NCBI GenBank assembly: GCA_043805415.1
Contig: JAZDHZ010000007.1
Coordinates: 29,786 to 93,785, forward strand
From: Candidatus Omnitrophota bacterium
Lineage (GTDB): Bacteria; Omnitrophota; Gorgyraeia; B26-G9
Length of the DNA stretch: 64,000 nt
Direction of reading: 5' to 3'
Below are positions 46,241-64,000 of the stretch, in pieces; position 1 is the stretch's first letter; every line of letters begins with the position of its first letter. The notes below the pieces were generated by a model that saw only the letters and a list, made by a program, of their open reading frames with translations, was not told the origin of the DNA and did no database searches. The position numbers and the translations under genes were made by a program.

Positions 46241-46790
46241 TTTTAGGCCTCAAAAGCAAAGCAGTATAAGCAAATATGCTTTGGCTAAAACTAAAACTAT
46301 TTTCAATATAAAAATCCTCAAGAAAAAGCTTCGCGAATTCATCGCTATGGCGCACATAGTGGCCGCGGTCAAAGTACCTGATCAACCAACCCAGAACATT
46401 CAGCCTTGAATCAGGATAAACCCCGTCCGCAATAATTGCCCTGCCGTTTTTACTTAAAATTCGCTTTATCCGGACAATAAGCTGCTTTGCCTGTTTGGCA
46501 CTCAGATGATGAAAAAAGCTTACAGATAGAACATAATCAAAAAATCCATCCGGATAAGGCAAGCCCTGACATACATCCTGTAATTTATAAGTCCCATCCC
46601 TTCTTTCGGCAAGTTTTCTCAGTACATTCCTGTCCGCGTCTAAACCAATATAATTTTCCGGAGCGAATCCCCAGAAATTTCCGGTTTTCCCGCAGCCAAT
46701 ATCGAGAATTCTCGTTTTGCTTTTAATCTCCATATTTTTAAAAGCAAATCGGGTGATCTGGTCATAACACTTTTTTAGAAGAATTTTCAT
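46233..46790 (-). CDS. class I SAM-dependent methyltransferase
   Basis: SAM motif I is ILDIGCGKTGNF and a post-I acidic residue is present. The protein is 185 aa. Confidence 0.75.
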   Translation of the reverse strand: MKILLKKCYDQITRFAFKNMEIKSKTRILDIGCGKTGNFWGFAPENYIGLDADRNVLRKLAERRDGTYKLQDVCQGLPYPDGFFDYVLSVSFFHHLSAKQAKQLIVRIKRILSKNGRAIIADGVYPDSRLNVLGWLIRYFDRGHYVRHSDEFAKLFLEDFYIENSFSFSQSIFAYTALLLRPKND

Positions 46791-47854
46791 AATTTACAAC
46801 ACCGCACGCATCCCGGAAGAATCTTTTTGCTGAGAATCGCGGAAAACTCCCGGCGTTTTTGGTTTTGCCAAACATCAGACAGCTCTCCAGTTTTAATATT
46901 CCCCAGAATATAATCAGAAAAGAACTGACAAGGGATAATATCCCCATTAGCCTTGATAAATACAGAATGCCGCACAAACATACACTTGCGGTCAAAGTCA
47001 AAATTATTGGCAAACCATTTTTCCCGCTCCTTAGCCGTCAGGTAAGGCTTAAATATAATAAAATTTCCATATTTTTTCTTTAAACGCGAAACTTCTTTTT
47101 GCAGTTTGATCCCTATTCCCGGCTGATTAATGTCTTTGATATAGGTCGTCATTTCCGCTTCTTTTTCAGTTAACAGCCCATTGTCATCGCAGGCCGCTAG
47201 ATGCTGTTTATATTCATCCCGCGATAAAAAAATAAGCTGCTCAAATCTGACTCGATCAACACCTAATCTTTTGCCTTGGGCAATAATATCTTCTAAATCA
47301 TAATAATTATCCGGGGTGATCACGGAATTAAGCAATAAAGCGGCTTTTTTTCTATGGGCAACTGACAGTTCTATGGCTCTAGACAGCGCGGAATATGCTC
47401 CTTTTTTTCCGGTTTTAGCATCGTGGCCTAATTCATCTCCATGAACTGAAAAGATTACAACTTCCGGTTCAACATTAAAAAGTTTTTTAATTTTATCCTG
47501 ATCCAGCAATGTTCCATTAGTAACTAACCCATATTTTAAGTTGCACTGTTTAACCGCATGAAGAATTTCAAAAATATCTTTTCTGATAAACGGCTCTCCC
47601 CCTCCAAAAAAAACAGCGGGTTTATATCTTGCGATTTTCTTAATAAAACAAATAATATCTGCAGCCGGAAGCGCTTCGGCTTTATTCAGCATCGAATGGG
47701 CAGAGCAAATGCTACAGTCAAGATTGCAGTTATTTGTAATCAGAAAGTTTACAGTAACCGGGAATCTATTGCCCGCAGACAAAATTTGTCTTAGCGAAAA
47801 TAGACCGCGAAAGGCTAATAAATTATTTATTTGAGAATAAATACCGCGAAACAT
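46787..47854 (-). CDS. radical SAM/SPASM-domain protein
   Basis: CNLDCSICSAH is present. The C-terminal motif reads GDIIPCQFF...CVRCC. Confidence 0.8.
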   Translation of the reverse strand: MFRGIYSQINNLLAFRGLFSLRQILSAGNRFPVTVNFLITNNCNLDCSICSAHSMLNKAEALPAADIICFIKKIARYKPAVFFGGGEPFIRKDIFEILHAVKQCNLKYGLVTNGTLLDQDKIKKLFNVEPEVVIFSVHGDELGHDAKTGKKGAYSALSRAIELSVAHRKKAALLLNSVITPDNYYDLEDIIAQGKRLGVDRVRFEQLIFLSRDEYKQHLAACDDNGLLTEKEAEMTTYIKDINQPGIGIKLQKEVSRLKKKYGNFIIFKPYLTAKEREKWFANNFDFDRKCMFVRHSVFIKANGDIIPCQFFSDYILGNIKTGELSDVWQNQKRREFSAILSKKILPGCVRCCKL

Positions 47855-49555
47855 CTAGTTTATCCTTTTATAAATATGCACATTTTCATAAGTATTATCA
47901 TTTTTAAGATCATCCAAAACAATAGCGTTTATTTTTTGAAACTTTTCACGCATTGCAACCAGGCTTATTACATCAGCATCTTTAACAATTAACTGATTGG
48001 CGGTTTTTAAATTCATTTGCTCAAGAAACCGGCGGAAACTTTTTTTTGTTATCCATTGCTGGTCTGAGCGGCTAACAAAAATCATAATATCAAAATCATT
48101 TAATCCCGCCCAAAACACATCAGAACAAAACGAAAAATCAACTATTTGCGCTTTTTTTTGCGGTTTTAAACCAACTAATCTGACAAAATATGAAGGGAAA
48201 AATAAACCGATATTATCATTATCATAAAAAATCCCCACTTTAGCATCGCTATTGCCGATATTTTCCAGAACTTGGTTAACATCATAACTTCCGTTTTCCG
48301 AATAGGTTGCGTTTATTTTTGGCAAAGGCGGATAATAAGTAGCATAAAACATTCTATCTTTGCCCAATGAGAGCCGATAATAACTGAAAATGCTTATACA
48401 GATAACTGCGGCTATAATCAGAATTCGGATGAATTTTCTGTTTATGCTTGCTATTGCTAAACCAGTTATCAATCCAAAAGCCGGCAAATAAGCAATCGTG
48501 TATTCCGCGTATTTAAGTTTAATGAACGTAAACACGCAAAACGGCACTAATCCCCATAGGATTAGGATATATTTTATATATTTCGTGTTTTCTATATCTT
48601 TTGGATTTACTTTTTCTTTTAAGATTACTTTATCTTTTGCGTTTTGTTCAATCATGCCAAAATTAAAAAAAGCCGCGATCAATAGGAATAAGAAAAAAGC
48701 TCCGATTGTATTCAGCAATGAAACCAAATAATAACTAAGATGTTCAAAGGAAAACAGATTGTTGTTATTTACCGCTCCGATAAAGCCAGCTCGGTTCAGC
48801 ACACTCAGATAAACACCTTGATTATAGTAAAAAATAGAACTTATTAAAACCCCGATGCTCAGACAGATAAACAGATTAAGCTTTCTTTTATCCAAAATAA
48901 GACTTGCTTGTTTTTGGGAAAAGCATGCCCATAAGTAAAAACCCATTGGCCCAGAGATATAAATAAAAAATGTCTGTTTTGTCAGCATGCCCAAGCCTAA
49001 AAAAACACCCAGAAAAAAAGAAAATTTCAGATTCTGAAAAAAGTCAGTTTTAAGCAGAAAGTAAATACTTACCGCGCTCATAGCCGAAAGCGCGAGTTCA
49101 ATACTAAAATGCCGGGATGAGAGAAAAATCATCGGATACATGCCGCAGATAAAAGCACTGATGATTCCGGCAAGCGGGCTGATCCGGTTCGCGATAGCAT
49201 AAACACTTAAAAGCAAAATAATCAGATAAAAAGTATTGGTCAGCAAAGCCGCGTTCATAATAAAACTGCCTAATAGTAAATTTACTATACAAGCGCTGGC
49301 ATAAAACAAAGGCGGATAATCAATCACCCCGAAAACCAGATTATAAACCAGGCTTTTTTCCTGGCGATAAAAAGGATTATGTTTCCCGTTTTCAATAATC
49401 TGTTTAAAATTAGAATACGCGGTTAGATGCGCGTAGCTATCCTTGCCCTCGGCCAAAGGATGCTTGGCTAAAAAATAGAGATTATTCGTAATATGAAAAA
49501 TAATTAAAATTGCTAGTAACCCCAGGCATATGTATTTTATTTTTTTTTCATTCAT
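47855..49555 (-). CDS. polytopic membrane protein, probable GT-C-type (ArnT/PMT-like) glycosyltransferase
   Basis: 566 aa, multi-TM with a large C-terminal non-membrane domain. Adjacent genes abut it exactly at both ends. Confidence 0.5.
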   Translation of the reverse strand: MNEKKIKYICLGLLAILIIFHITNNLYFLAKHPLAEGKDSYAHLTAYSNFKQIIENGKHNPFYRQEKSLVYNLVFGVIDYPPLFYASACIVNLLLGSFIMNAALLTNTFYLIILLLSVYAIANRISPLAGIISAFICGMYPMIFLSSRHFSIELALSAMSAVSIYFLLKTDFFQNLKFSFFLGVFLGLGMLTKQTFFIYISGPMGFYLWACFSQKQASLILDKRKLNLFICLSIGVLISSIFYYNQGVYLSVLNRAGFIGAVNNNNLFSFEHLSYYLVSLLNTIGAFFLFLLIAAFFNFGMIEQNAKDKVILKEKVNPKDIENTKYIKYILILWGLVPFCVFTFIKLKYAEYTIAYLPAFGLITGLAIASINRKFIRILIIAAVICISIFSYYRLSLGKDRMFYATYYPPLPKINATYSENGSYDVNQVLENIGNSDAKVGIFYDNDNIGLFFPSYFVRLVGLKPQKKAQIVDFSFCSDVFWAGLNDFDIMIFVSRSDQQWITKKSFRRFLEQMNLKTANQLIVKDADVISLVAMREKFQKINAIVLDDLKNDNTYENVHIYKRIN

Positions 49556-50410
49556 TTATTTTTCCGGATTAGCTACTTGAATATTAACATCATCCACTAA
49601 TACCATTGGTAAAGGCATTCCCCGCGCCTGGTTTAAGGTAATTTCCAGCATTATTGCTCTTCCGTCATTAGGCACAGTTCCCTTTAATTCAATATATTCC
49701 CATTGGCTGCAAGCCGAGCCGGAAACACTGGCCAGATTATCCCATTGGCCATTAGGCTTAAGCACATTAACTGTAAATTTTATAATATCTCCTTTATACC
49801 ATAGACTTGCCTTTACATCCGCGTTGGGTAAAACCCCTAACCAGCATTCTGTCTGTCTATAACTATAAGCGTTATTAATCAGGCTTTTAGCCGTTTTTTT
49901 TGAATAATGATAACGGCTAGCCGGAACAAGACATTGAATTTTCAGACAGCTGGGCGCGGAATGAAACTCCTTACTATCAATACTGGCAATACTTTTTGAA
50001 TTAGGAAATAATTTCCCGCCATCAGAAGTTACCCAATGCTCCAAGCCCTGGTTAAAATCATTGTTCTCGAGTTTATGGTCAGGACTAAAATAATTTTTCT
50101 CAATATGAGTTTTAATATATCTCTCCGACTCAAAAAACTGTTTATAAAAAAAGCCTTTTATCGGCTCATAAAATATCCAGAATGAAAATATGGCCGTCAT
50201 TGCCAGGATTAAAATTATCTGAATCGGACCAAGATTAATCGCGTCTTCATCAACATTTGACTGCTCAGGATTTTTCTCCTCCTCAAAAAACCATCGAATA
50301 ATTTTCAACAGTTTATTTTCTTTCTTTGTTTTATGATCCTTGGGATCTTTATTCTCCTTACTCTCTTTATCTGCCGCATTCTCTTTATTGCCTTTATTTT
50401 CCTGATTCAT
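49556..50410 (-). CDS. membrane-anchored hypothetical protein (K/E-rich cytoplasmic tail, single TM, extracytoplasmic beta-rich domain)
   Basis: The N-terminus is low-complexity (NKENAADKESKENKDPKDHKTKKENK). A TM segment (ILILAMTAIFSFWIF) follows. The C-terminal domain has Trp/Cys in a CBM-like pattern. Confidence 0.45.
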   Translation of the reverse strand: MNQENKGNKENAADKESKENKDPKDHKTKKENKLLKIIRWFFEEEKNPEQSNVDEDAINLGPIQIILILAMTAIFSFWIFYEPIKGFFYKQFFESERYIKTHIEKNYFSPDHKLENNDFNQGLEHWVTSDGGKLFPNSKSIASIDSKEFHSAPSCLKIQCLVPASRYHYSKKTAKSLINNAYSYRQTECWLGVLPNADVKASLWYKGDIIKFTVNVLKPNGQWDNLASVSGSACSQWEYIELKGTVPNDGRAIMLEITLNQARGMPLPMVLVDDVNIQVANPEK

Positions 50411-52085
50411 CGCCCCTCCTTTTTACCAGAAAATCGCCTATAGCCAGATAATCCAGCCCGCTTTTCTGAAAACTGTTTATCGCGTCTTGCGGACTGCGGA
50501 CAATCGGTTCTTCATGAATATTAAAACTCGTATTTAATACTCCCGGAATATTGGTAATCTGTTTATATTCAGTAAGAATCTGATACAAATCATTATTTGA
50601 CTCGCCACAGACAAACTGCGGCCGGGTTGTCTTGTCTTTGTGCACAGCCGCGGGACAGGTTCTTTGAAAATAATCCGTTGCCTTAAAACTTATATTCATA
50701 AACTGTCCGGAATATTCCGCCTTTTGCGTATTAACGCAGCATTTTGACTTATATTCATCAAGAATACTTGGACCAAAAGGCATAAATCCGTCTCTGCGCA
50801 GTTTAATGTTCAGAGAATTCTGGATATCGCTGTCTGTGGCCTGCGCCAGAATCGAGCGGTTGCCCAAAGCTCTTGGCCCAAACTCCATCCTTCCACTAAA
50901 CCTGGCGACAACTTTTTCCTGACTAAGCAATTCGGCGATCTGCCTATGAATATGATTGCTTTTTATATATTCAATTTTTAGAGCTTCCAGGGTTTCTTGG
51001 ATTTGCTCATTTGAATAGCTTGGCCCCCAGAAAACATTGTTTACTTTAAACGGCTTTTGTTTTTTAACGAAAAAAGCCGCGCCTAAACCTAATCCGCCGT
51101 CCCCCATATGCGGACAGACAAACAACGTTTCTACCGGCGCGAGTTCGCAGATTTTCTGATTAACTTTTATATTAGCAAAAAATCCGCCGCTGAGCACAAC
51201 TTTGGAAATACCGGTTTTCTCAACCCAATAAGCCACTATTCGCTCTAAACAATCCTCAGCCTGTTTTTGAAAAGAAGCCGCGACTTCCTGTTTACTGAAT
51301 GTTTTTAAGCGGCTGAATATTTCCCTGTCTTTAACAAAAGGATTCTTTGGTTTAAATCTGCCTTTTTTTACGCGCAAAAGTCTGATTGCCTGCTCTAAAG
51401 CCGGGTATTCATCACCATAAGCCGCCAGTCCCATTACCTTGCCTTCATCCTGTATCGGCTTAAACCCGAGAAATTCAGTTAAGCGCGAATAATAAAGAGT
51501 TATATCATTTAAAGCGCTTTGCCGGAATAGCGGCTTTATTATTCCGTCCCTGCCGATATTAACGCTAAAGGACACGCCGTCGCCTAATCCGTCAATAGTA
51601 ATAATCAAAGCATTGTCAAAGCCGCAAATACTATAAGCGCAATAAGCATGCGCTGTATGATGGTCAACACTAATCACTTTGGCTTTAATTCCCAGCCTGC
51701 TTAATTTTCGGCTTAAAACCCCGCGGCTTAAAAACGCTTCGATTTTTTTAAGCAAAATAAATTTTTCCGCCAGAACCTGATAAGTAATATACCCGGCTAA
51801 TAAAAAGCTGAATTGCTTATTGCCGCTTCTAAGCTTAGCATGGCTTTGGGAAAATAACCTTAAAATAAATGCCGGAGTCATGTCCGAAGCCGCGGCAACC
51901 AAACTGACATCTTCGGGTTTTATTTTCTTTAAACGTAAAACTTCTTTGATTGACAAAACCGGAAATCCGCCCTGAAGTTTAATCCGGCTCAAACGCTCTT
52001 CATTAACCGCGACAATTTCAGGGGATTGACTGCTGAGCAAAGCCGCGCCCGCGTCCTGGCTGTCGCAGATTCCGAGTATATACAT
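50394..52085 (-). CDS. carbamoyltransferase, NodU/CmcH family
   Basis: The N-terminus MYILGICDSQDAGAALL...VNEERLSRIK is the Kae1/YgjD-like ASKHA start of NodU/CmcH. The size (563 aa) and the C-terminal carbamoyltransferase domain fit the family. Confidence 0.85.
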   Translation of the reverse strand: MYILGICDSQDAGAALLSSQSPEIVAVNEERLSRIKLQGGFPVLSIKEVLRLKKIKPEDVSLVAAASDMTPAFILRLFSQSHAKLRSGNKQFSFLLAGYITYQVLAEKFILLKKIEAFLSRGVLSRKLSRLGIKAKVISVDHHTAHAYCAYSICGFDNALIITIDGLGDGVSFSVNIGRDGIIKPLFRQSALNDITLYYSRLTEFLGFKPIQDEGKVMGLAAYGDEYPALEQAIRLLRVKKGRFKPKNPFVKDREIFSRLKTFSKQEVAASFQKQAEDCLERIVAYWVEKTGISKVVLSGGFFANIKVNQKICELAPVETLFVCPHMGDGGLGLGAAFFVKKQKPFKVNNVFWGPSYSNEQIQETLEALKIEYIKSNHIHRQIAELLSQEKVVARFSGRMEFGPRALGNRSILAQATDSDIQNSLNIKLRRDGFMPFGPSILDEYKSKCCVNTQKAEYSGQFMNISFKATDYFQRTCPAAVHKDKTTRPQFVCGESNNDLYQILTEYKQITNIPGVLNTSFNIHEEPIVRSPQDAINSFQKSGLDYLAIGDFLVKRRGDESGK

Positions 52086-53042
52086 TTAAACTTTTTCCTT
52101 GTTCTCTGGTTTTATTCTGTAACTGGACTGGTCGCGCATACCGGAATAAAGCCGGATAACAATCTCGGCTAAAATCCCGATTAAAATAAACTGAATGCCA
52201 ATTATAAAAAAAAGCACGAATAAAAATAAAAGCGGGCTGACCCACTGCCCGGCCCATAAGACTTTGCGCAGAACGATAAACACGCCGATGAGTACGGAAA
52301 ATACCACGGAAACCAGGCCAATGCCGCCGAATACCTGCATCGGTTTGGCCATGAATTTCCAGGTAAATAAAATCGTCAACATATCCAGGATAACTTTAAA
52401 AAACCGCGACGCGCCGTATTTTGAGCAGCCGTGTTTTCTTTCATGATGGCGCACCGGGATTTCACCGATCTTCGCTCCCTGTATGGCCGCGCATAAAGGT
52501 AAAAACCGGTGAATATCCCCTTTAAATTCAATATCTTTCAGCACCTTCGCTTTATAGGCTTTTAAGGTACAGCCCAGATCATGCAGTTTTACCCCGGTCA
52601 AGCGGGCGCTGAGAAAATTCGCCAGCGCTGAAGGCAGTTTTTTGCCCCAGAAACTGTCCCGGCGCTTGATCCGCCAGCCGCTGACCACATCATAGCCCTG
52701 GCTGATTTTATCCAGCAGTTTGGGGATATCCCGCGGATCATTCTGCAGATCAGCATCCATAGTCACAATCAGCTTGGCCAAAGCATTATCCACACCCGCG
52801 GCAATTGCCTGGGTCTGTCCGTAATTTCTTAAAAAGGTTATTATCCGCGCGTGCTTATCGGCTTGGGCTATTTCCTCAAGCTCCTGGCTGCTGTTATCCG
52901 TACTGCCGTCATTAATAAAAATAACTTCATAATTAAAATCCATTTTACTCATCACATCAGTAATCTGCTGATCCAGGATCTTAAGATTGCCCTGTTCATT
53001 AAAAACCGGGATGATAATCGATACTTGAATATTATTTTCCAT
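52086..53042 (-). CDS. polyprenol-phosphate glycosyltransferase GT2 (ArnC/GtrB/Dpm1-like) with C-terminal TM helices
   Basis: VSIIIPVFNEQGNL and TMDADLQNDP (DAD.Q) are present, followed by two C-terminal hydrophobic helices. Confidence 0.85.
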   Translation of the reverse strand: MENNIQVSIIIPVFNEQGNLKILDQQITDVMSKMDFNYEVIFINDGSTDNSSQELEEIAQADKHARIITFLRNYGQTQAIAAGVDNALAKLIVTMDADLQNDPRDIPKLLDKISQGYDVVSGWRIKRRDSFWGKKLPSALANFLSARLTGVKLHDLGCTLKAYKAKVLKDIEFKGDIHRFLPLCAAIQGAKIGEIPVRHHERKHGCSKYGASRFFKVILDMLTILFTWKFMAKPMQVFGGIGLVSVVFSVLIGVFIVLRKVLWAGQWVSPLLFLFVLFFIIGIQFILIGILAEIVIRLYSGMRDQSSYRIKPENKEKV

Positions 53043-53060
53043 GTTATATTATCCTATTTA

Positions 53061-54215
53061 TTATTGCCATGACTGAGCGTAAATATTCAGTAAATTCTCT
53101 GCCGTGGTCTGCCAATTATACAGTTCTTCCGCTCTTTGGCGCGCTTTTTTGGCTAATCTCCGGCGCAAAGGTTCATCCTCCAAAAGTTTAATTATCCCGC
53201 GGGCTAAGTCCTCGGAATCTCCGGGTAAAGTAAGGATTCCGGCTCCGCCAAGCATCCGCTTTACTTCCCCAACATCACTGGCGACAATCGGCTTACCGCT
53301 GGCTAAATACTCGGCGATTTTAAGCGGGCTTTTACACTGGGTAATGTCATTATCCTCAAAACAAGCCACGCAAATATCAGTTGCCGCTAAGTACAGCGGC
53401 GTTTCTTGATGGCTGATTGCCCCGGTAAAAATAATCTGCTTAGCCATATCCATATCCTTAGCCATTTTTTTTAATTCCTCCAAACGGTAACCGCCGCCGA
53501 TAATAAAAAAAATTATTCCTTTCATCTGATTGCTGATCATTTTGGCCGCGCGGATAAACTGCTCCGCGTATTGGCCGCCGTGCAATTGGCCGAGATAGCT
53601 GATGATCGGGCCATGAATATTATACTTTTCTCTGATCCGGACAGGAGAAATATCCGGATTAAATAAATCAAGATCCGCGCCCACCGGAGCCATGGCGATT
53701 TTATCTGGCTTAATGCCGTATTTAATACACTCCTGCTTCAGGCGCTGGCTGGAAACCGAGATAGTGTCGCAAAGATTCGGGATATAGCGCTCTAAAGCCC
53801 AAAGAAAACTGCCGGCCAAACGCGGCTGTTTAGCGCAATAGTAAAATATTTTTATTTCCCAGTCATCCCAGTCATAATGTACTGGCTTATTATTTATAAA
53901 ACCCGCGAGCAAAGCCGGCAATGCCGCGTAATAAAAACACTTTTGGACATGAATTATATCCGCCCATCTGGCCTGAGCGCGGACACGGCCGATATTCTTA
54001 AAATAATTATTAATTCCCAGCCTCCGGCTTAAAGGAATATATTCAATGCCTTGGATTGTAAAATCAGCCTGCTGCTCCTGATATTCCAAAGGAAAATAAA
54101 TTATTTTCACGCTATGGCCTTTCCGCTTAAATTCCTGGGCGATTTTTTTAATCCGGATCGTCCAGGGCTCTTTGCGCGAAAACAAATCATGGGGATGAAT
54201 CATTAATATATTCAT
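53061..54215 (-). CDS. glycosyltransferase family 4 (GT-B fold)
   Basis: GT4 motifs are present (GKPIVASDVGEVKRML, EX7E-type). It is the first gene of the 54215->34005 operon. Confidence 0.8.
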   Translation of the reverse strand: MNILMIHPHDLFSRKEPWTIRIKKIAQEFKRKGHSVKIIYFPLEYQEQQADFTIQGIEYIPLSRRLGINNYFKNIGRVRAQARWADIIHVQKCFYYAALPALLAGFINNKPVHYDWDDWEIKIFYYCAKQPRLAGSFLWALERYIPNLCDTISVSSQRLKQECIKYGIKPDKIAMAPVGADLDLFNPDISPVRIREKYNIHGPIISYLGQLHGGQYAEQFIRAAKMISNQMKGIIFFIIGGGYRLEELKKMAKDMDMAKQIIFTGAISHQETPLYLAATDICVACFEDNDITQCKSPLKIAEYLASGKPIVASDVGEVKRMLGGAGILTLPGDSEDLARGIIKLLEDEPLRRRLAKKARQRAEELYNWQTTAENLLNIYAQSWQ

Positions 54216-55072
54216 AAAAATTCCTTAATGTCTTTATCACTATACGCTTTTAAGTATTGCGTTGTGAGTCGTGCGTATTGCGCAAAAAGAACTAACAAAT
54301 AAACAACTAATATGCTTTTTCGCTTTTTCTAACCGCTATTCGCTGTACTCAATACTATTTTCTTTGTGACTTTGTGTCCTTGTAACCATCGTATCGAAGG
54401 CGGTCCGGAATCAATCATTTTGGCTCATTCTCGCATTACATCCTGTAATGCTCCGAGGATGAATCTCTGATTTTGTCAGTCCTATCAAAATCAGGCTTCA
54501 AACCCGCCTAAATAATTATTCCTGCCCTCCAAAGTGTACAGTTATTAATTACGAATTTTTAGTTTTTACCATTAGCCATCGACCATCATCCATTAGCCCT
54601 ACGCTTTTACTTTGTGACCTGGTGACTTTACAAACTTTATAAACTGTTTTGTCTTGTGTCCTTGCGTAGAGCAACTTTTTCTAAAGATGATCATCATCTT
54701 AAAAACAAATTAATAAAGAACTAAACGCTATTCGCAGATAGCTAATGACTAATGGTCACTAGTCTATTCGCCAGGCGAAAATTCTCTTTTAGCGGCGCTT
54801 TAAATGAGAGCCTGACTTACTGAGTGTTAGCGAAGTCAAGTCAGCCTGCTCGAATTTAGTCCGAAATAGCTGCGACCTAGCAGATATTTTCGGAATCATT
54901 AGCGAGAACGCGCGGCTGAGCCTGTACGATGCAGGCTCAGGCTTAGCTAAAAGATGTGTTTTTGCCTGTCAAACAACTCTTGCGTGTCATTAATTTTTAA
55001 CACGTTAACCTATTACCCCTCAACCTGCTTTTCTGCTTTGGCTATAAGTCATGCGCTATGCGCTAAACGCTA
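54216..55072. other. 857-bp ORF-free, locally GC-richer inter-operon region with multiple stable hairpins and short motif repeats (possible ncRNA or regulatory region)
   Basis: No ORF of 60 aa or more lies on either strand. There are three clear hairpins: gcattacatcctgtaatgc (54433-54451), ctgattttgtcagtcctatcaaaatcag (54467-54494) and gagcctgtacgatgcaggctc (54918-54938). Recurring motifs include ccattag/ctaatgg and ttgtgtccttg. Confidence 0.4.
54253..54356. repeat. IR-flanked conserved intergenic element, copy B (upstream of the GT4 gene 53061..54215), with a ~28-nt insertion relative to copy A
   Basis: agtattgcgttgtgagtcgtgcgtattgcgcaaaaaga...aataaacaac...cgctgtactcaatact. The termini agtattg/caatact are inverted. 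The core shared with copy A covers about 60 nt. Confidence 0.5.
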
Positions 55073-56752
55073 TTAGTTTCCTGGGAAAACAATCGATTTC
55101 CGGATTTTCTTTAAAATTAATAAATAAAACTCAATAATAATACTTGCGCCAAATAAAGCCAAAAGCAGGATAAACTTAAATATTTTATGTTCGCGCTTAA
55201 ATTGTCCCGGATTAAGAACAGTTAAGTCCTTGTCCTTGTCCTTGTTCTTTTTCTGATTCAAAATTTCTGTTTCTTCAATTATTAAGCTATCCTTTGCTTT
55301 TGGATTAAAGTTTTCATCCTGGTAATTTACAATCAGGTTTTTAATCTTTAGCTCTTTAAGTAGATCACAGATCCGCTTAACCCGCTGATTCCGCTCGGCC
55401 TGGGATAAATTATTTTCATCTGTCCATTTGCCTGGATCAAGCGGGTCAAGAAATTTAATCCCAAAACGCCGCGGATAAATCCCCACGTCAGAACCCGGCA
55501 TCAGCACAAAAGAAGAAACATTGGTCACCTGAGATATATATTTACAGTTGCGCTTAATAAAATCAATTGTCTGCTGAAAATCCTCTTCAGTCTCCCCGGG
55601 AAAACCGACAATAATATTCAGGCTTCCCTGGATGCCGGCTTTAAAGCTTTTTTCCAGCACTGCCTGGGCATCAGCAGCTGTATAATGTTTGTTCATTTGC
55701 TTTAAAATCCTGTCTGAGCCGCTTTCCAGTCCATAACACAAAGAATTACATCCGGCCTGTTTCAGATCATCGAGCAGTTCCTGAGTCATGTTTTTTCTGA
55801 TTGCCGCGTAGCTGATCCAGGTTAAATTAAGCTTTTCTTCCCGGATTTGTTTACAGAGCTTATCCAGAGCATGCGGATTGCCGTTACAAAGCAAATCATT
55901 AAACTCAATATGAGTTATATTGTATTTCTGTTTAAGATATTTCAGCTCTTGAATTATAAGCTCCGGGCTTTTCATCCGGAAACTTCCGCAAATATACCAG
56001 TCAATACAATAACCGCATTGATTGATACAGCCGCGGCTAAGCAGCATGGGCAGCGGATGATATTCGCTGTTTTTATTATAGCGGTTTAAATCAAATTCCT
56101 GGAAATCCGGATAAGGCAGGCTGTTTAAATCTTTTATCGGCTGCCAGGGCAGATAGGCTATATCTGCCGAATCTTGGGCATAAAGCAGTCCCGGGATTTT
56201 TGAACATAAATAATCCGCGGACGGATTATTTGAAAATTCCCGGATGAATTTTTCCAGGGCCAGCTCGCCCTCGCCGATTATAAAAAAATCAATGTTTTTG
56301 GTTGCAATCGCCTTTCTGTCCCAGCTGTGATAAATCCCCGGTCCTCCGAGAATAATAACTTTGTCGGGATATTTAAGCTTTATTTTATCCGCGGCAAATC
56401 CGGCAAAAACCGCGCTGATCAGATTATTGGCGGAAAAGCCGATGATTTTATACTGTTCCAAACTATCAACAAACCGCTCAATATGGTTTTCAAAAGCCTG
56501 AAAAATATTTTCGGCGATCTTTACCGGCTTGATCCGGTTGATTTCAGCCAAATGCCAAAACAGCTGTTGTTGGGAGTCTGCCTGTTCGTATAAATCCAGA
56601 TTTAAATCAAAAATATCTGCCGCTAGGCCTTTGGCCCTTAAGTACGCGGATAAACAAGCAATGCCCAAAGGCGGCATTACCACTCCCCAGGGCGGACAAT
56701 TAACTAAAATTAATTTATTCATTTGCTGCCTTTTAGGTTTAGTTTTAAACAA
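55073..56752 (-). CDS. cobalamin-binding-domain radical SAM protein (class B) with C-terminal TM helix
   Basis: B12 N-terminal domain and CINQCGYCIDW (CX3CX2C) are present. The C-terminal hydrophobic segment is FKFILLLALFGASIIIEFYLLIL. Confidence 0.85.
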   Translation of the reverse strand: MFKTKPKRQQMNKLILVNCPPWGVVMPPLGIACLSAYLRAKGLAADIFDLNLDLYEQADSQQQLFWHLAEINRIKPVKIAENIFQAFENHIERFVDSLEQYKIIGFSANNLISAVFAGFAADKIKLKYPDKVIILGGPGIYHSWDRKAIATKNIDFFIIGEGELALEKFIREFSNNPSADYLCSKIPGLLYAQDSADIAYLPWQPIKDLNSLPYPDFQEFDLNRYNKNSEYHPLPMLLSRGCINQCGYCIDWYICGSFRMKSPELIIQELKYLKQKYNITHIEFNDLLCNGNPHALDKLCKQIREEKLNLTWISYAAIRKNMTQELLDDLKQAGCNSLCYGLESGSDRILKQMNKHYTAADAQAVLEKSFKAGIQGSLNIIVGFPGETEEDFQQTIDFIKRNCKYISQVTNVSSFVLMPGSDVGIYPRRFGIKFLDPLDPGKWTDENNLSQAERNQRVKRICDLLKELKIKNLIVNYQDENFNPKAKDSLIIEETEILNQKKNKDKDKDLTVLNPGQFKREHKIFKFILLLALFGASIIIEFYLLILKKIRKSIVFPGN

Positions 56753-59700
56753 AATTCCTGCGCGTCGCCGGGCAGAAAAATCCTCGCTTTATTTGTTTCG
56801 ATTTTCTGCGCTGAAATGATCCGGGCATTGATCAGCTTATCGGCATTCTGGACCTGCGGCCTTAAGCCTGATCCACTATCCGCGGAAAAATCAAAAATCA
56901 GTTCAGGAAATTCACTATTCTTTGTTTTTCCTCCCAGGACTTTTATTTGTCTGGCGTTTAAATTTTTAATCTCAGCTTGCTGCCAATCTTTTAAATTAAA
57001 AAACTTGCCTGTTTCATTGGCAATCTGCCATTTTTTATAAACCGGGCAAAGCATGATGCTTGATTTAGTCTGTTCGATTTCGATTTTCGCGTCAACTGCC
57101 ATCCGGATATTCCATTCCAGCAGATAATCCTGATCCAGTTTTATCCGCCAAATCTGGGAAAGCGGAATATTATGCCAGGTGCTTTTCAGCTCAAGCTCAT
57201 GCTGATTATGCTTAAGCACTTCCCATTTTGCTTTGGAAGAGTCATACCATAAGCCAAACACGCGTACCGAAGTATTTAAGCCGATACTCTGAGTGATTTC
57301 CTGATTATCCCAAAAGAGTTTTACTCCTTCGCCATGATACACTGCCTGCAATCTGCCTTGTTTGATACTCTTTTTACTGTCTGATTTTCTTTTATCGATT
57401 CTCGCTTTTACGGCCTGGGAAAATGTTTTGCCTTTAAGATAGTTTTTCAGCTTTAGCCAGAATAAAGCCAGTTTCAATAACTTATATTCTAAGCCGGTCA
57501 AAGACTGGATCTTTTTATGCATATGAATATTCCGGGCAAGGTCGTCACAGCCTTTAAAACAGCCGACTTTTACATTCGAGTCATTGCCGATAAATGAAAA
57601 AAATACATCCTGCTTGGGCAAAGACATTGCCCGTTTTCGGAATTCCTGCTGTTTGCGGCTATTCCAGATCTGAACAAAATCATGAGCATAAATATTTCCC
57701 ACGGGGATGCGATGGGCTTTTAAGCAAAAATTCACATTGCCGTCAGCCCGGATTCTGGCAAACAGCCAACCCATATAACAAGGGATTTGATTTAAAATAT
57801 CATTATCATATTGAGCGATTTTCGCCTCATAATTCTCCACCCGGCGCATAAACTGCTCAAACTGTAGGATTTTGATTTTATTTTTTAAATCCCCTGTTTC
57901 TAAACGCTGTTTGATTTTATAACAATCATTGATTACGCTTTTTTGCTGCTCATCATTGAGCGTCAGAGCATCCGTAGCATCGGGAATAGTATCAATAACC
58001 GTAAATTCCAAAGAATCACAGCCGGTTTCCAGGGCGAAATCAAGCATTTGATTTATTTCCTGATAATTCTGATTGGAAATCACATTATAAATATTTACCC
58101 ACGGCTTTTGCTGTTTAAGCGAATTAAGCAGTTTAAGCGTACCTTTAAGCTGATAAAACATTGCCTCGGATTTATTGGGATGGGTCAGATGATAGGTTTT
58201 TGCTGTTCCGGCCCAGATACTGACCACCAGATTATCCACGCCAATATCAACCAATTGCTTTACCATATCCTCGCTGACTAAAGTAAAATTTGTATTAATA
58301 TAACAGCGCAAACCCAGCGCCTTAGCATGTTCCAGAATTTTCATAATCTGCGGATGCATAAACGGCTCGCCGCCTCCGGCAAAATAGATTTCCCGGGTGC
58401 CCAGACGCTTAAGCTGATCAATGGTTTTTTTAACAACTTCCATAGGTAAAGTCTGTTGTTTAACCTGCTCAGTGATCTTTTTATCTTTTAATAAAGGCGA
58501 ATTGCACCAGCAGCCGATGCAGTCATTATTACAATCATTGGTAAGGTCTATTTGCGCGCAAAACGGCCCCTTATAAGCCATATTACCGTCGATAACTCCG
58601 ATAATATCCAGATAATAATCTTTCAGTTTTTTCAAATTAAGATTTTTGATGATTTTAGCGCAAACCGCGAGCAGCCCTTTATCGCTTAGCTGCTCTTTAA
58701 TAAATTTTAAAGGCGCTTTTGTTTTATATTCCTGAATCGCCTGAGACTGTTTATTTTGCCTTAAAGTAATCTCCAAATCAAAATAATCATAAACTCCGGG
58801 CAAAAACCTGTCTATTTTTAATCTGCGCATCTGGACAATCCGTCCCTTGATCTTTTTATCCGTATTCTGGATCTGGGGATAAGTATTATCTTTGTACAGT
58901 CTAAGAGTTTTTAGCTCAATCTCCGGCAGAGCATTTTTGTATTTATTCTCACTGCCTGCCAAAAGCCGGGAACTATTGGGATTATATAATTCAATTTCTT
59001 CCCATTCCGTTATTTTTGGGAAAAAGCCTGTACCCAGGTTATCCTTCCACATCGTATATTTACTGTCCAGCAGCAGCCCGGCTTTGTATTCCATGATCTC
59101 CATATCCTGATCAATCCGCATCTGGCTGGACCATTTGATAATATCATTATCTTCAATAATGATCAGCCATTGCTGGCGTACCGGATGCTGATCCCATTTC
59201 AGCCAGACCTTAATCATATTCTCAGCGGTTTTTTCCAGTTTCCAATGCGCCAGAGAAGAATCAATCCAGCTTTGGCCGCAATGCATGGAAGTATTCAGGC
59301 CCACGTCTTTGCTGATTTCCTGATTTTTCCAAAACAGCCTTACCTTGCCTTCGCTAAAAGCAATTTTTGTATTTCCATTGGTAATTGTCTCTTCAATAAG
59401 CCAAAGTTTTCTGCTAAAATACTGCCTGACACGCAAAGGCAAAAACATCAGCCGCCTTAAAATAAATAAGCATATTTTAAAAAGCGCGGCCAGCAGCCCT
59501 TTGGTTTTATAATAAACTATTAATTTTTGCTTTAGGCTCCGCGGCTGAACCGGCAGCAGCTTTTTAATTTTCAGCTGACAGTGTTTTTCCCATTGCTTAT
59601 ACGCGTTATTTTTTGCCTGTTTAAGCTGTTTCGAGGACAAGTCCTGAGTGCGGATAACGCAGCTGTGATTTCCGTCAAAATTATCCCAGTTCTTATCCAG

Positions 59701-60918
59701 AATATAACCCTGCTTATCCATTTGCTCATAAAACCGGGTTCCGGGAAAAGGCGTGGCCAGAGAAAACTGCACGGAAGTCGGATTTAATTTTTTGGCATAT
59801 TCAATAGTATCGCTGACTGTCTGGCTGGTTTCACCCGGCAGCCCAAAGGTAAAAGTCAAATGCGTCCTGATCCCTAAATATTTCGTGTACTTAACCATTT
59901 CCTCGACTTTTTTCAAATCACTGCCTTTATTAATATTATCCAGCAATTGCTGGGAGGAAGATTCCACGCCGTATTTGACGGAAAACAAGCCGGCTTTACG
60001 CATTCTTTCCAGCAGCGGCTCATCCATAAGCTCAGCTCTGGCCATAATCGCCCAAGGCACCTGGAGATTTCTTTTTTCCAGCTCATCGCAAAACGCGAAG
60101 ATCCGCTGTTTGCCGATATTCCAGGTATCATCATCAAAATAAATTGATTTAAATCCCAGCTGTTTAACCAAATATTCCATTTCATCAACAACATCAACCA
60201 CATCTCTGACGCGGTACGAACCGCCTTTATACATTACCTGCGGCCATAAACAAAAACTGCATTTAAACGGACAGCCGCGGCTGGCCCACATTGAGGCGCA
60301 AGGCACAGGAATATCCCCGGGAGCATCATTGTAGGACTTGAGCAGCAGTTTTTTTCGCCGCGGCCAGGGCAAAGAATCCAGATCCTTAATCAAAGGCCGA
60401 GGCGGATTTTTCATGGCTTGATTATTTTGTTTATAAATCAACCCTGAGACATCAGCTAAGCTGCTTTTATCCCTAAGTTTTTGGCAGAGCTCAAGTAAAG
60501 TAGCCTCATACTCGCCGTACATGAGATAATCAATAAAAGCGGTTTTTTCTAAAAATTCCGGATTTTCCAGCTGCGCTTCCGGGCCGCACAAGGCTATGGG
60601 CAGATGACCTTTATGCCGGATAAGCATTTTCAGGTCATGCGCCAAAGTAACAGTTGATGTTTCCGCTACCATTAACTGCGGCTTAAGCGCGATTATTTTC
60701 TGGAAAAACTCATTTTTCGAGAGTTTCTCGGCAATCGCGTCAATAATTTCCACTTCAAAACCGTTTTTTTCCAGCAAAGCAGCGGCATAAGCCAGATAAA
60801 ACGGAAACGGCAGATAATTATTTTCCGTATGATCTTTTATATGCGGCCAGCGCGAACCGGCTCTGACTCCCCAGCGATTGCCTTTTTTCCAGGGTAAATT
60901 AACTAAAACAATCCTCAT
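56719..60918 (-). CDS. giant 1399-aa multidomain protein: B12-binding rSAM (aa 1-~470) - hydrophobic helix - novel Trp-rich domain (aa ~515-700) - rSAM/SPASM (aa ~770-1130; CNNDCIGCWC) - novel Trp-rich domain copy 2 (aa ~1165-1399)
   Basis: The first rSAM motif is CPFKCSFCLW. The second rSAM with SPASM reads CYMGWLFARIRADGNVNFC...CFKGCDD. Two internal repeats carry LFW-NQEI-GLNTS-W.DSS conserved positions. Confidence 0.85.
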   Translation of the reverse strand: MRIVLVNLPWKKGNRWGVRAGSRWPHIKDHTENNYLPFPFYLAYAAALLEKNGFEVEIIDAIAEKLSKNEFFQKIIALKPQLMVAETSTVTLAHDLKMLIRHKGHLPIALCGPEAQLENPEFLEKTAFIDYLMYGEYEATLLELCQKLRDKSSLADVSGLIYKQNNQAMKNPPRPLIKDLDSLPWPRRKKLLLKSYNDAPGDIPVPCASMWASRGCPFKCSFCLWPQVMYKGGSYRVRDVVDVVDEMEYLVKQLGFKSIYFDDDTWNIGKQRIFAFCDELEKRNLQVPWAIMARAELMDEPLLERMRKAGLFSVKYGVESSSQQLLDNINKGSDLKKVEEMVKYTKYLGIRTHLTFTFGLPGETSQTVSDTIEYAKKLNPTSVQFSLATPFPGTRFYEQMDKQGYILDKNWDNFDGNHSCVIRTQDLSSKQLKQAKNNAYKQWEKHCQLKIKKLLPVQPRSLKQKLIVYYKTKGLLAALFKICLFILRRLMFLPLRVRQYFSRKLWLIEETITNGNTKIAFSEGKVRLFWKNQEISKDVGLNTSMHCGQSWIDSSLAHWKLEKTAENMIKVWLKWDQHPVRQQWLIIIEDNDIIKWSSQMRIDQDMEIMEYKAGLLLDSKYTMWKDNLGTGFFPKITEWEEIELYNPNSSRLLAGSENKYKNALPEIELKTLRLYKDNTYPQIQNTDKKIKGRIVQMRRLKIDRFLPGVYDYFDLEITLRQNKQSQAIQEYKTKAPLKFIKEQLSDKGLLAVCAKIIKNLNLKKLKDYYLDIIGVIDGNMAYKGPFCAQIDLTNDCNNDCIGCWCNSPLLKDKKITEQVKQQTLPMEVVKKTIDQLKRLGTREIYFAGGGEPFMHPQIMKILEHAKALGLRCYINTNFTLVSEDMVKQLVDIGVDNLVVSIWAGTAKTYHLTHPNKSEAMFYQLKGTLKLLNSLKQQKPWVNIYNVISNQNYQEINQMLDFALETGCDSLEFTVIDTIPDATDALTLNDEQQKSVINDCYKIKQRLETGDLKNKIKILQFEQFMRRVENYEAKIAQYDNDILNQIPCYMGWLFARIRADGNVNFCLKAHRIPVGNIYAHDFVQIWNSRKQQEFRKRAMSLPKQDVFFSFIGNDSNVKVGCFKGCDDLARNIHMHKKIQSLTGLEYKLLKLALFWLKLKNYLKGKTFSQAVKARIDKRKSDSKKSIKQGRLQAVYHGEGVKLFWDNQEITQSIGLNTSVRVFGLWYDSSKAKWEVLKHNQHELELKSTWHNIPLSQIWRIKLDQDYLLEWNIRMAVDAKIEIEQTKSSIMLCPVYKKWQIANETGKFFNLKDWQQAEIKNLNARQIKVLGGKTKNSEFPELIFDFSADSGSGLRPQVQNADKLINARIISAQKIETNKARIFLPGDAQEFCLKLNLKGSK

Positions 60919-61031: not shown

Positions 61032-63980
61032 TCATAAAAACTCTTCCAGATGATACAGGGAAAACTGATCCCAGACATCCCTAAGCACCTGATGCGTATC
61101 GCAATGCTGACAATCATCACCAAATAAAGGAGTGCCGTTTAGGAATTTTTCCTGTTTATGAGCACTAAGATATTTAGCTTGATACCGGAAGCGTTCATAT
61201 GCTTCGGAGTTCCAGATTTCTTTAAATGATTTATCTTTTAAATACCCTACGGTTCTTAAATGACAGCAAAAGCTCACGTCTCCGGCAGCGGGAATAAGGC
61301 TGAAATTCCAGCCCAAAGCGCAGCCTTTTTCCAGAAAAACATCTTTGGACCATGACCCTGTATCCGGCTCGAGATTTTTTAACTGAAATTGGGTAGTATC
61401 AAGCAGCTCGATTTCTTTACCTTTAAGCATTTGTTTAATTTCAGGTAAAGCCTGCTTAATCGCCTCAATATCCTCTGGTTTTAGTTTTAAAGCCTGAATA
61501 TTCTGATCAAGCCTGACCAGATAAAACCGGATCACATTTGCGCCAACGGCAATATCATTTTCCGCCATCTCCACCAGCTCATGGGCGTTCATTGTATGAA
61601 TAACATGAGTCATAATCAAACGCGGCTTTTTTGCTTTGCTCTGTTTTTTATAATCAGATAAATATTTAAGATTTTCCAGGATCGTATCAAACGCTTTCTC
61701 ATTCTGCTTGGTATTTATTTGGGCAAAGGTTTTTGCCAAACCAGCTGGCAGACTGCAGAAAATTTCGCTTACCCCATAATCAACCGCCTGTTTAGCCACT
61801 GTTTTATTCAAAAGAATGCCATTAGTAAAAAACGATACTTCAATTCCCTTTTCCCGGCCGTATTTAACCATATCAAAAAATCGCTCATGCAATAGCGGCT
61901 CGCCGTCTCCTTGAAAAATCATCAGGTCAGTGTAAAGTTCACTTAGATCATCAGCGATTTTTTTAAAGCCTTCAAAGCTGAGTTTCCGGTCAAGAAATTC
62001 CTGGGGATGTTTTATGCTCGGCGTATGCACCCAGCAATGCACGCAATTAGCATTACAGCGGTGATACGGATCAATAACCACGATCTGCGGTCCAATAAAA
62101 GCGTGTTCGCAGATCACGCCCAATAAACGCAATAACTGGCGTTCATTATCTGTTTCCACCTGAGTATAAACCGCAGTAATCAGATCAAACAGCTTATCAT
62201 CAGCCAGAACAAATTCAATATTACCGATACGGCTGGCGATTTTTTTCAAGGCACCAAGATACTCAATAAAACTACGCCGCAATTTTTTTAAGGGGAAGAT
62301 ATTTAAAGTCAAAGACCTCAGGTCAATCGGTTCCCCGATTTCCTTAGCCGCAAATTGAAGAATTTCATTAAGTTTAAAGAAATTATATCTGGACACTCCG
62401 ATTGTTATCAGAGGAGTTCTTCCCTGTTTTTTCAGCAAACGCAGATTGTTTATTTTTGTCTCAAACTCTTTTACTCCGCTAATCCGGTCATGGAGAATCG
62501 GGTTGTCCGCGTATATATAGCTTGATTGCGGCTCAAAACGCAATGGCTGGGCATCCCGCCTATAATCATCGATACAGCTATTGTCATCACTGAGATATAT
62601 ACCGCCTTTAAATTCACGAAATTCTTTGGCCGCGTATTTACTGGTCTGGCTGGTTTCAATTACCTGGGCCTGCAAAGCCCGGCCGCGGATAATCCGATCC
62701 GAATTCTGAATCAAAGAGATGTATTCCGGGTCAATGCAAAACATCACTGCCGGCAAACCATTATCCGCGTAAGTACCGAAAGTTTCTCCGTCCCGGTTAG
62801 CGATAATATCATGCCAGGACCCGAACTGTTCAGGAAAAACACCTTGCTCAAAAGAATTAAACCAGCGCTGATACGCGCCGCTTAGGATAATCCCGGTTTT
62901 GCGCTGCTTAATCTCCACTGCCTGTTTAAACTCAATGCGCGCGTGCCATTCAATAGTATGATCGTCTTTTAGCGTAACCATCCATTTCTCAACCGCGGGA
63001 AAAGGGCTAAAATCAATTACTATCTCCATCTTCCTATCTGATATCTTGGTTACATCCCAATTAATTTTTCCGGAATCATACCAATAGCCGTCGGAATACA
63101 GCGCTGTATGCAAACCAATATCCGTAGTTATTTCCCTGCTTTTCCAAAAAATCCTTAATCTGCCTTTATCCGGCAATAGCTTAATATTTTTATTTTCCAA
63201 ACCGCTGCGCGTAATCATAGCCTGCATTTTCTGATTAAGCTGCTGTTCGATTAAATCAGGCTGGGGAATAAGCGTGATTTCCAGAGCAAAATTATTTTTT
63301 TCTTGCGAACCATTTACTTTCACTGCCTGGAGATAACGCGCCTGATTATTCCGGTCTGAATTCTGGACAAGCAGATAATCGCAGCTTTGCTCTTTAGCTC
63401 TGAGCATTATCCCGGGAATTTTCCCCTGGTTTTTCAAACCAACCGCGCCCTCAGGTTTATCTTTAATTACCCGCTGCCAATCAGCGAATTCTTGGCTGAA
63501 AATTCCGCTTTCATATCCGCCAAACCATTGTTCATATTCCGGGCTCAAGATTATTCCTGCTGCCTGATTTTCAATAAGCGTGTTTTTATCCAGAATATCC
63601 GTGGAAATTTTCCACTCAATCAGTTGCTGATTATTAAGCATTATCTGCCAGCACTGGCGGATGGCTAAAGGCCGCCAGTCAATTTCAATGTATAAAGACT
63701 GGGAATTGATCCGCTCAACCTGCCAAATACACTTACTGGAATCAAACCATTGTCCGGACACAAACAAAGCTGAATGCAGTCCAGCGCCTTTGCTCAACTG
63801 TTTATCCTGCCAAAACAACTGAATTGACTGGTCTTTAAGCTCAAGCTTTAGATCAGCTTCAATGATCTGTCTTGACCGCAGAGCCTGGCTGATGCTTTCC
63901 TGCTTTATTTTGCTGAACAAATCCCGATCCAAGCAAAACAGGATCTCTGATTTTAACAACCGGTATCTGGCCTTAGCCAT
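61032..63980 (-). CDS. 982-aa protein: two tandem copies of the novel Trp-rich domain (aa ~50-225 and ~272-445) fused to a C-terminal rSAM/SPASM domain
   Basis: The repeats begin QLFWQDKQLSKGAGLHSALF...WFDSSKCIW and RIFWKSREITTDIGLHTALY...WYDSGKINW. The rSAM motif is CNANCVHCW. The SPASM region (CALGWNFSLIPAAGDVSFCC) is paralogous to that of 56719..60918. Confidence 0.85.
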   Translation of the reverse strand: MAKARYRLLKSEILFCLDRDLFSKIKQESISQALRSRQIIEADLKLELKDQSIQLFWQDKQLSKGAGLHSALFVSGQWFDSSKCIWQVERINSQSLYIEIDWRPLAIRQCWQIMLNNQQLIEWKISTDILDKNTLIENQAAGIILSPEYEQWFGGYESGIFSQEFADWQRVIKDKPEGAVGLKNQGKIPGIMLRAKEQSCDYLLVQNSDRNNQARYLQAVKVNGSQEKNNFALEITLIPQPDLIEQQLNQKMQAMITRSGLENKNIKLLPDKGRLRIFWKSREITTDIGLHTALYSDGYWYDSGKINWDVTKISDRKMEIVIDFSPFPAVEKWMVTLKDDHTIEWHARIEFKQAVEIKQRKTGIILSGAYQRWFNSFEQGVFPEQFGSWHDIIANRDGETFGTYADNGLPAVMFCIDPEYISLIQNSDRIIRGRALQAQVIETSQTSKYAAKEFREFKGGIYLSDDNSCIDDYRRDAQPLRFEPQSSYIYADNPILHDRISGVKEFETKINNLRLLKKQGRTPLITIGVSRYNFFKLNEILQFAAKEIGEPIDLRSLTLNIFPLKKLRRSFIEYLGALKKIASRIGNIEFVLADDKLFDLITAVYTQVETDNERQLLRLLGVICEHAFIGPQIVVIDPYHRCNANCVHCWVHTPSIKHPQEFLDRKLSFEGFKKIADDLSELYTDLMIFQGDGEPLLHERFFDMVKYGREKGIEVSFFTNGILLNKTVAKQAVDYGVSEIFCSLPAGLAKTFAQINTKQNEKAFDTILENLKYLSDYKKQSKAKKPRLIMTHVIHTMNAHELVEMAENDIAVGANVIRFYLVRLDQNIQALKLKPEDIEAIKQALPEIKQMLKGKEIELLDTTQFQLKNLEPDTGSWSKDVFLEKGCALGWNFSLIPAAGDVSFCCHLRTVGYLKDKSFKEIWNSEAYERFRYQAKYLSAHKQEKFLNGTPLFGDDCQHCDTHQVLRDVWDQFSLYHLEEFL

Positions 63981-64000
63981 GGCCTGGTCATAATAATCTC

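Follow-up and report, generated by a model that had tools for sequence, protein, structure and literature searches.

In a 64,000-nt stretch of an Omnitrophota genome (Candidatus Omnitrophota bacterium, assembly GCA_043805415.1, contig JAZDHZ010000007.1), one gene joins two different radical S-adenosylmethionine (rSAM) enzymes in a single polypeptide of 1399 amino acids (aa). The whole stretch is referred to as the window, and all positions are counted within it. A cobalamin (B12)-type rSAM module and a SPASM/Twitch-type rSAM module are each followed by a copy of a repeated domain, here termed N. The fusion is genuine and conserved in Omnitrophota, where the fused form is in the majority. We consider it probable that the protein is a two-site rSAM enzyme working close to the membrane, where it would recognise a surface glycan linked to a lipid and modify it twice by radical chemistry.

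Layout of the fusion protein

The gene and its parts, all on the minus strand, are as follows.
56719-60918, minus: whole gene, encoding the 1399-aa B12-rSAM / N / SPASM-Twitch rSAM / N fusion protein (single uninterrupted open frame, full-length orthologs)
59539-60918, minus: module 1, residues 1-460, B12-binding Rossmann domain and rSAM core, HpnJ/BchE-like (PF02310, TIGR03471)
60250-60273, minus: first CX3CX2C motif, C216-C220-C223 (CPFKCSFC), invariant in 21 orthologs
59410-59502, minus: linker 1, residues 473-503, basic, hydrophobic/amphipathic helix after module 1 (Kyte-Doolittle peak; pattern of Lys/Arg plus hydrophobic residues kept in 21 orthologs)
58732-59409, minus: N copy 1, residues 504-729, putative galactose-mutarotase-like supersandwich (hidden Markov model (HMM) from alignments; fold transferred from the model of copy 2)
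57589-58593, minus: module 2, residues 776-1110, rSAM core and SPASM/Twitch extension
58504-58533, minus: second CX3CX2C motif, C796-C800-C803, plus C805 (CNNDCIGCWC), invariant in orthologs and diverse SPASM-type modules
57547-57780, minus: auxiliary-cluster region, C1047-X12-G-X4-C1065 ... C1120-X3-C1124, whose four Cys are the only ones in the region
57424-57501, minus: linker 2, residues 1140-1165, basic amphipathic helix after module 2
56722-57390, minus: N copy 2, residues 1177-1399, galactose-mutarotase-like supersandwich in the predicted structure

GC content is flat along the gene, the Shine-Dalgarno-like sequence AAGAGAGG precedes its open reading frame (ORF), and the TGA with which it ends shares an ATGA with the start codon of the gene that follows. 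Pfam places Radical_SAM (PF04055; 131.7 bits against a cutoff of 29.5) on two separate stretches of the protein, the best at residues 792-962, and the triads C216/C220/C223 and C796/C800/C803 are both invariant in the alignment of 21 orthologs. No Pfam match was obtained for residues 460-775 or 1110-1399. A preliminary description of this DNA had reported two complete, different rSAM catalytic modules in one chain, carrying the motifs CPFKCSFC and CNNDCIGCWC, together with copies of a novel domain between and after them. The two modules are borne out by Pfam, by NCBIfam and by both intact Cys motifs, which lie at C216-C223 and C796-C805, and the repeated domain, for which Pfam has no match, by blastp and alignment; this agreement with the stated coordinates is far beyond chance.

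The character of the two linker helices suggests that they associate with the membrane. A transmembrane reading of residues 473-497 was rejected, because the segment is rich in Lys and Arg here and in the orthologs, and because a crossing would put the second Fe-S/SAM enzyme in the periplasm.

Conservation of the fusion

A search of 5.8 billion proteins gave 412 relatives at E≤1e-5, and the best 120 of these are considered below. All of the top 21 are full-length proteins of 1381-1443 aa, at 56-85% identity and 99-100% coverage; they come from different metagenomes and are mostly named Candidatus Omnitrophota. Taken over all searches, independent Omnitrophota assemblies hold at least 20 full-length orthologs with identities of 46-85%, and their gene order is conserved. 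One of them, the 1401-aa ortholog P0002 (80% identical), is found as the same protein on independently assembled NCBI and ENA contigs. The species-representative genomes of GTDB were also scanned, with an alignment (A2) as the query, since a single-protein query had returned nothing; here, B12-N-SP-N genes (where SP denotes a SPASM-type module) form one ORF in 15 loci. We also see split forms in more distant species, with the same module content as the fused gene: in three loci (L015, L016 and L017, the last from a single-cell genome) the modules are divided among neighbouring genes, each in another frame, as [N][B12-N][SP], and a fourth has them as [B12][SP-N] (L018). That the same modules occur in split and fused forms indicates functionally linked modules and not an error. 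Comparison of layouts thus gave a predominance of the fused form, and not orthologs that are consistently split.

An assembly or frameshift artefact that joined separate genes into one long ORF would be in keeping with the few species that have split versions, and with one apparent frameshift elsewhere in this assembly, in murE. We regard it as extremely improbable: more than 20 independent assemblies show the same fused ORF with the same boundaries, and the linker segments are conserved in character among the orthologs. An indel, moreover, would break a frame and would not create 1399 in-frame homologous residues.

To survey architectures, modules were scanned with queries and HMMs for B12 (residues 1-460), SP (residues 776-1110) and N (the repeated domain). 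The main layouts among the best 120 relatives are listed here; rarer ones also occur.
B12-SP: 43 of the best 120, ~910 aa
N-B12-SP: 28 of the best 120, ~1150-1230 aa
B12-N-SP-N: 21 of the best 120, ~1400 aa
B12 followed by three SPASM-type rSAM modules: 8 of the best 120, ~1920 aa
N-B12-SP-B12: 8 of the best 120, ~1700 aa

Both a B12-type and a SPASM-type module are present in all 120, and Pfam counts Radical_SAM four times in P0024 (Ca. Saelkia tenebricola) and three times each in P0035 and P0037. The preliminary description knew of no other single chain with two complete, different rSAM domains; these relatives, with up to four rSAM domains per chain, and the known two-rSAM enzyme FbiC (PMC11917521) show that the architecture is not unique. 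Multi-rSAM polypeptides are in fact far commoner than that single textbook case. Other loci cut the modules differently, as [ABC-N x3-4][N-B12][SP-SP-SP, ~1430-1470 aa][B12-B12(-B12), up to 1837 aa], where ABC is an ATP-binding cassette ATPase. Single chains with three B12-rSAM modules (1539 aa, L033 15768-20387; 1837 aa, L024 10356-15869) or three SPASM-type rSAM modules (~1430-1470 aa, L022 11494-15789 and L025 11452-15873) were seen in such loci. Literature searches on rSAM enzymes in Omnitrophota or Omnitrophica, on tandem rSAM domains, and on rSAM with polysaccharide found no description of the family. A report of rSAM-rich loci in Elusimicrobia was set aside as unrelated, as it concerns nitrogenase paralogs.

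The two catalytic modules

In module 1, the B12-binding domain (PF02310, residues 40-144; 40.2 bits against a cutoff of 32.1) is joined to the rSAM core. The best NCBIfam match of residues 19-443 is HpnJ (TIGR03471, 269.5 bits, E 6e-80), with BchE next; the score is less than half of the 577.6-bit cutoff for the HpnJ equivalog. Solved relatives by sequence are AprD4, TsrM, CysS, TokK and OxsB, the closest being AprD4 (6fd2, E 3e-22), an aminoglycoside diol-dehydratase. These matches place module 1 in the HpnJ/BchE branch of cobalamin-type rSAM enzymes, members of which are non-methylases. It may use cobalamin; some rSAM enzymes with a B12-binding domain, AprD4 among them, do not.

These affinities bear on whether the substrate is not a sugar but a membrane lipid of hopanoid-, ladderane- or tetraether-like type, modified in its hydrocarbon portion. 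The best families of module 1 are HpnJ, BchE and a ladderane-type B12 rSAM model, the linker helices appear membrane-interactive, and Omnitrophota are reported to have lipid rSAM genes, with Hbs homologs mostly alongside Mss (bioRxiv 10.1101/2023.10.20.563219). However, no hpn, squalene-hopene cyclase or lipid-synthase gene is present among the annotated ORFs of the window, HpnJ itself works on a sugar head group, and the fold and fusion partners of N point to glycans. We therefore give a lipid substrate only a slim chance, slightly below that of the peptide and catalytic-N alternatives discussed below, and favour a glycan.

Module 2 carries a GGGEP SAM-binding motif (residues 848-852) that is invariant in the 21 orthologs, and a SPASM match (PF13186) at residues 1047-1095 (36.8 bits against a cutoff of 21.5). 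SPASM enzymes have a seven-Cys motif, CX9-15GX4C...CX2CX5CX3C...C, that serves two auxiliary clusters. This motif is absent in module 2, in which we find four Cys only (CX12GX4C ... CX3C); these residues, C1047, C1065, C1120 and C1124, are invariant across orthologs and diverse SPASM-type modules. Four Cys would serve one auxiliary cluster, so the module fits a SPASM enzyme by Pfam and a Twitch-like one by its likely cluster count. Of the 'distal Cys clusters' in the preliminary description, the conserved distal Cys thus stand, but not as the full SPASM motif. Among NCBIfam models, residues 790-1098 come closest to tungsten-cofactor maturase, AhbD and NirJ-type SPASM enzymes, and the best match in structure and in sequence is the sugar enzyme BlsE (PDB 7vob). 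For both modules, the nearest characterised relatives are enzymes that act on sugar rings.

The repeated N domain

The N copies are homologous: by blastp, residues 494-739 and 1199-1389 match two regions of the protein encoded upstream (E 1e-21 to 1e-25), and the positions FW..GL..W.DS..W are invariant in the domain alignment. With 32 diverse copies as input, the AlphaFold2 model of residues 1170-1399 is all-beta (mean predicted local distance difference test score 93.8, predicted template-modelling score 0.89), and predicts a carbohydrate-binding-type, galactose-mutarotase-like fold. Although the model has the supersandwich fold of aldose 1-epimerases and galactose mutarotases, N does not belong to their sequence family and lacks their conserved catalytic His and Glu. 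Identity to mutarotase-like supersandwich proteins is 4-14%, and no Pfam aldose-epimerase match was found. An N profile compared with 1.84 billion representatives matched only 652 clusters. N makes up a small family of its own, so far almost exclusively from Omnitrophota loci.

In the best 150 of the 652 clusters, the layout met most often puts a ~230-aa N-terminal domain ahead of 2-5 N copies, and in 4/4 such proteins scanned the N-terminal domain is an ABC ATPase. At locus L005 the N-bearing ATPase is of TagH/Wzt type (188 and 158 bits) and adjoins a Wzm/KpsM-like permease and a WecA-like initiating transferase, directly upstream of a B12-N-SP-N ortholog. N is also fused to PMT_2 glycosyltransferases of the GT-C type (P0129, P0182), and in P0034 a single 1900-aa chain unites the two rSAM modules with three copies of N and the exporter ATPase. 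Because these fusion partners all handle polysaccharide, N is best read, by analogy, as a glycan-recognition module.

The preliminary description had called the protein 'tri-catalytic'. Were the N domains themselves catalytic, with mutarotase- or epimerase-like activity, the enzyme would be tri-functional, and the modelled fold invites the thought. We think this unlikely, given an identity of only 7-13% to the proteins compared here and the lack of a family match noted above. The positions conserved across the 32 diverse copies are mostly Trp, Tyr and Phe with a Gln-Asn pair, and none of them is an invariant His, Glu or Asp. Moreover, behind transporter ATPases N is repeated in tandem, 2-9 copies at a time, as is typical of binding repeats. 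A carbohydrate-binding-type fold, no invariant acid/base residues, and arrays that reach 8-9 copies together make N look like a recognition module and leave a third activity unsupported.

Gene neighbourhood

The genes next to the fusion are as follows.
61032-64000, minus: upstream partner, N-N-N-SPASM rSAM, first N copy missing here, truncated by the window end
55073-56722, minus: downstream partner, B12-rSAM with C-terminal transmembrane helix, its start codon sharing an ATGA with the stop of the fusion gene; synteny kept at every orthologous locus
44831-54215, minus: downstream string of GT4 glycosyltransferase, ArnC-like GT2 glycosyltransferase, NodU-like carbamoyltransferase, 284-aa protein, PMT_2 GT-C, SPASM rSAM, SAM methyltransferase and PMT_2 GT-C (Pfam and NCBIfam)

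Upstream, the frame runs on without a stop as far as base 63998, and its alignment with a 1183-aa ortholog begins at residue 195 of the latter; orthologs of this protein (1183-1217 aa) are N-N-N-SPASM rSAM chains with a ~150-aa unassigned segment between the last N and the rSAM core. For the downstream gene, the most probable start is the ATG within the ATGA overlap, which would give about 549 aa. The preliminary description had placed both neighbours in the same operon as the fusion. A conserved gene string does hold, with the ATGA overlap and synteny in 15 loci, but its '982-aa' protein is cut by the window end and its '559-aa' gene probably encodes the shorter product just given.

From the N-N-N-SP gene through the second GT-C gene, gene content is conserved across Omnitrophota species and order in most of them. 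The order of the downstream string is kept in L001, L002, L005, L012-L014, L027 and L081/L082, while L004 and L010 have the same genes rearranged. The 284-aa protein (49556-50410, minus) is a conserved protein of ~260-284 aa without a Pfam or NCBIfam match (orthologs include L002 21213-21989), and it sits between the carbamoyltransferase and GT-C genes in most orthologous loci.

From ~8.9 kb to the window end, nearly all genes lie on the minus strand and concern glycan synthesis. Glycosyl transfer is represented by GT4 and GT2 enzymes, among them an ArnC-like polyprenyl-phosphate transferase (218 bits), and by six PMT_2 (ArnT-like) GT-C enzymes. Besides these there are a Wzy_C protein, SAM methyltransferases, the NodU-like carbamoyltransferase, an AsnB-like amidotransferase (24813-26735) and an aminotransferase of ArnB/DegT-like type. 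The same ~55 kb (8952-64000) hold at least 16 rSAM domains: 7 B12-type, about 8 SPASM or plain, and one MiaB-like UPF0004 (20266-21465). A 759-aa fusion of a B12-binding rSAM to a family-2 glycosyltransferase (28717-30996, minus) is another physical link between radical chemistry and glycan synthesis. The stretch also contains a DUF362 protein and a methyltransferase-GT2 fusion (23556-24782).

This setting bears on whether the protein matures a peptide or protein, in the manner of the enzymes of ribosomally synthesised and post-translationally modified peptides (RiPPs). Here the B12 module would C-methylate, the SPASM/Twitch module would crosslink or epimerise, and N would replace the RiPP recognition element. 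No precursor-peptide gene, protease or recognition element was found, and a small-ORF search of 54216-55072, the only ORF-free gap, gave no conserved small ORF or peptide candidate. Glycosyltransferases and sugar-modifying enzymes surround the gene, N has in the model the fold of carbohydrate enzymes and is fused to polysaccharide-type ABC ATPases and GT-C transferases, and module 2 is best matched by the sugar enzyme BlsE. We thus hold peptide maturation to be improbable, about as much so as catalysis by N, and return to a glycan as the favoured substrate.

The ORF-free gap also contains a ~140-nt non-coding block (~54392-54530, minus) that is near-identical to L002 ~17130-17330, while the flanking proteins are 73-84% identical. 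The window has one copy of the block, and none of the other loci has it; the block folds well, with an energy of -45.5 kcal/mol (z = -3.6), including a terminator-like hairpin, and it has no Rfam match. An Rfam scan of the window gave zero matches overall, and a promoter/terminator scan was near shuffle expectation.

At its far end the glycan/rSAM cluster closes with the Wzy_C protein (10592-12226) and a GT2 (12223-13215). An opposite-strand SPASM rSAM gene (8952-10454) then separates it from a division and cell wall (dcw) cluster on the same strand as the glycan genes (RsmH, FtsI, MurE, MurF, MraY; 0.5-8 kb). Here murE (3357-4839, minus) seems frameshifted: a 146-aa N-terminal ORF (4399-4839) is out of frame with a 326-aa ORF for the middle and C-terminal Mur ligase parts (3357-4337). 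Either the assembly has an indel error at this point, or an essential gene has become a pseudogene.

Proposed function

In the reading we favour, the basic amphipathic helices would keep the enzyme at the cytoplasmic face of the membrane, and the N domains would hold a lipid-linked surface glycan, either a polymer or a lipid-linked sugar. The two rSAM modules would then abstract hydrogen atoms from sugar C-H bonds, leading to two different modifications. Candidates are ring rearrangement or C-methylation for module 1, and oxidation, decarboxylation, epimerisation or dehydration for module 2. Two successive radical modifications of one glycan would be plausible; the preliminary description had proposed a tethered substrate for them, which is unsupported because the chain has no carrier domain. 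Wzt/TagH-like exporter ATPases and some GT-C transferases may recognise the same glycan through the same domain: as N is common to exporter ATPase, GT-C enzymes and rSAM fusion, tailoring, export and transfer would all read one glycan.

More tentatively, and with rather less confidence than we have in the function of the single protein, Omnitrophota may possess a modular rSAM toolkit for surface polysaccharide. It would place 2-4 rSAM domains on a chain, in species-specific combinations, interspersed with a glycan-recognition domain that is also carried by the Wzt-like exporter ATPase and GT-C enzymes. A lipid-linked polymer would be tailored in the cytoplasm and read by the domain that gates export, in a kind of assembly-line logic.

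Radical chemistry on sugars is known from small-molecule pathways such as those of aminoglycosides, blasticidin and hopanoid head groups, and our literature search found no report of it on such a scale for a cell-surface glycan. Sugar-tailoring rSAM enzymes and multi-domain rSAM fusions are already known; the present protein adds a new recognition-domain family to them, within an unusually rSAM-rich envelope-glycan system. This type of locus combinatorially fuses rSAM domains with a family-specific recognition domain, at 16 or more rSAM domains per glycan cluster. If the proposal is correct, a widespread, uncultured and possibly predatory or host-dependent phylum would have an envelope polysaccharide with unusual modifications (C-methylation, ring rearrangement, deoxygenation or the like). 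N would be a new carbohydrate-binding-type domain family, and the natural fused and split variants would be a means to study how two radical active sites cooperate.

Comparison with known systems

Like the non-methylating cobalamin-dependent enzymes HpnJ and BchE, module 1 has an N-terminal B12-binding Rossmann domain and an rSAM core. For HpnJ, the reaction proposed is a contraction of the glucosamine ring in a hopanoid glycolipid (PMC9204698). Module 1 differs in its score, below half of the HpnJ cutoff, in the lack of hopanoid genes nearby, and in its fusion to N and a second rSAM enzyme. Module 2 compares with the cytosylglucuronate decarboxylase BlsE (7vob), the sugar-acting DesII and the Twitch/SPASM-subclass enzyme SkfB. 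Unlike BlsE, to which it is only 18% identical, it sits inside a 1399-aa chain.

FbiC, the fused CofG/CofH FO synthase, has two rSAM domains in one polypeptide that generate two separate 5'-deoxyadenosyl radicals, and is encoded by split genes elsewhere (PMC11917521). The present family resembles it as a two-rSAM polypeptide with split forms in other organisms. However, the halves of FbiC are related paralogs with no B12, SPASM or binding domain, and its product is a cofactor and not a glycan. The resemblance is architectural only, as no CofG, CofH or FbiC model is among the best 25 of the 72 NCBIfam families matched. N, for its part, can be set beside the supersandwich domains of glycoside hydrolases, phosphorylases, lyases and aldose 1-epimerases, to which it has no detectable sequence similarity and with which it shares no conserved catalytic residues.

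For export, the closest parallel is the O-antigen system. In E. coli O9a, WbdD adds a terminal modification; the binding domains known from Wzt proteins are small jelly-roll sandwiches. Where O-antigen export depends on an ABC transporter, the C-terminal domain of the exporter ATPase Wzt recognises a chemical modification at the end of the glycan (PMC9445017). The N domain is instead a predicted galactose-mutarotase-like supersandwich, and the tailoring enzymes are rSAM enzymes in place of kinases or methyltransferases. As in the Wzt system, related loci carry a TagH/Wzt-type ATPase, here with 2-5 N domains, upstream in the rSAM-fusion gene string and directly adjacent in L005. By this analogy, N may play a role like that of the Wzt binding domain.

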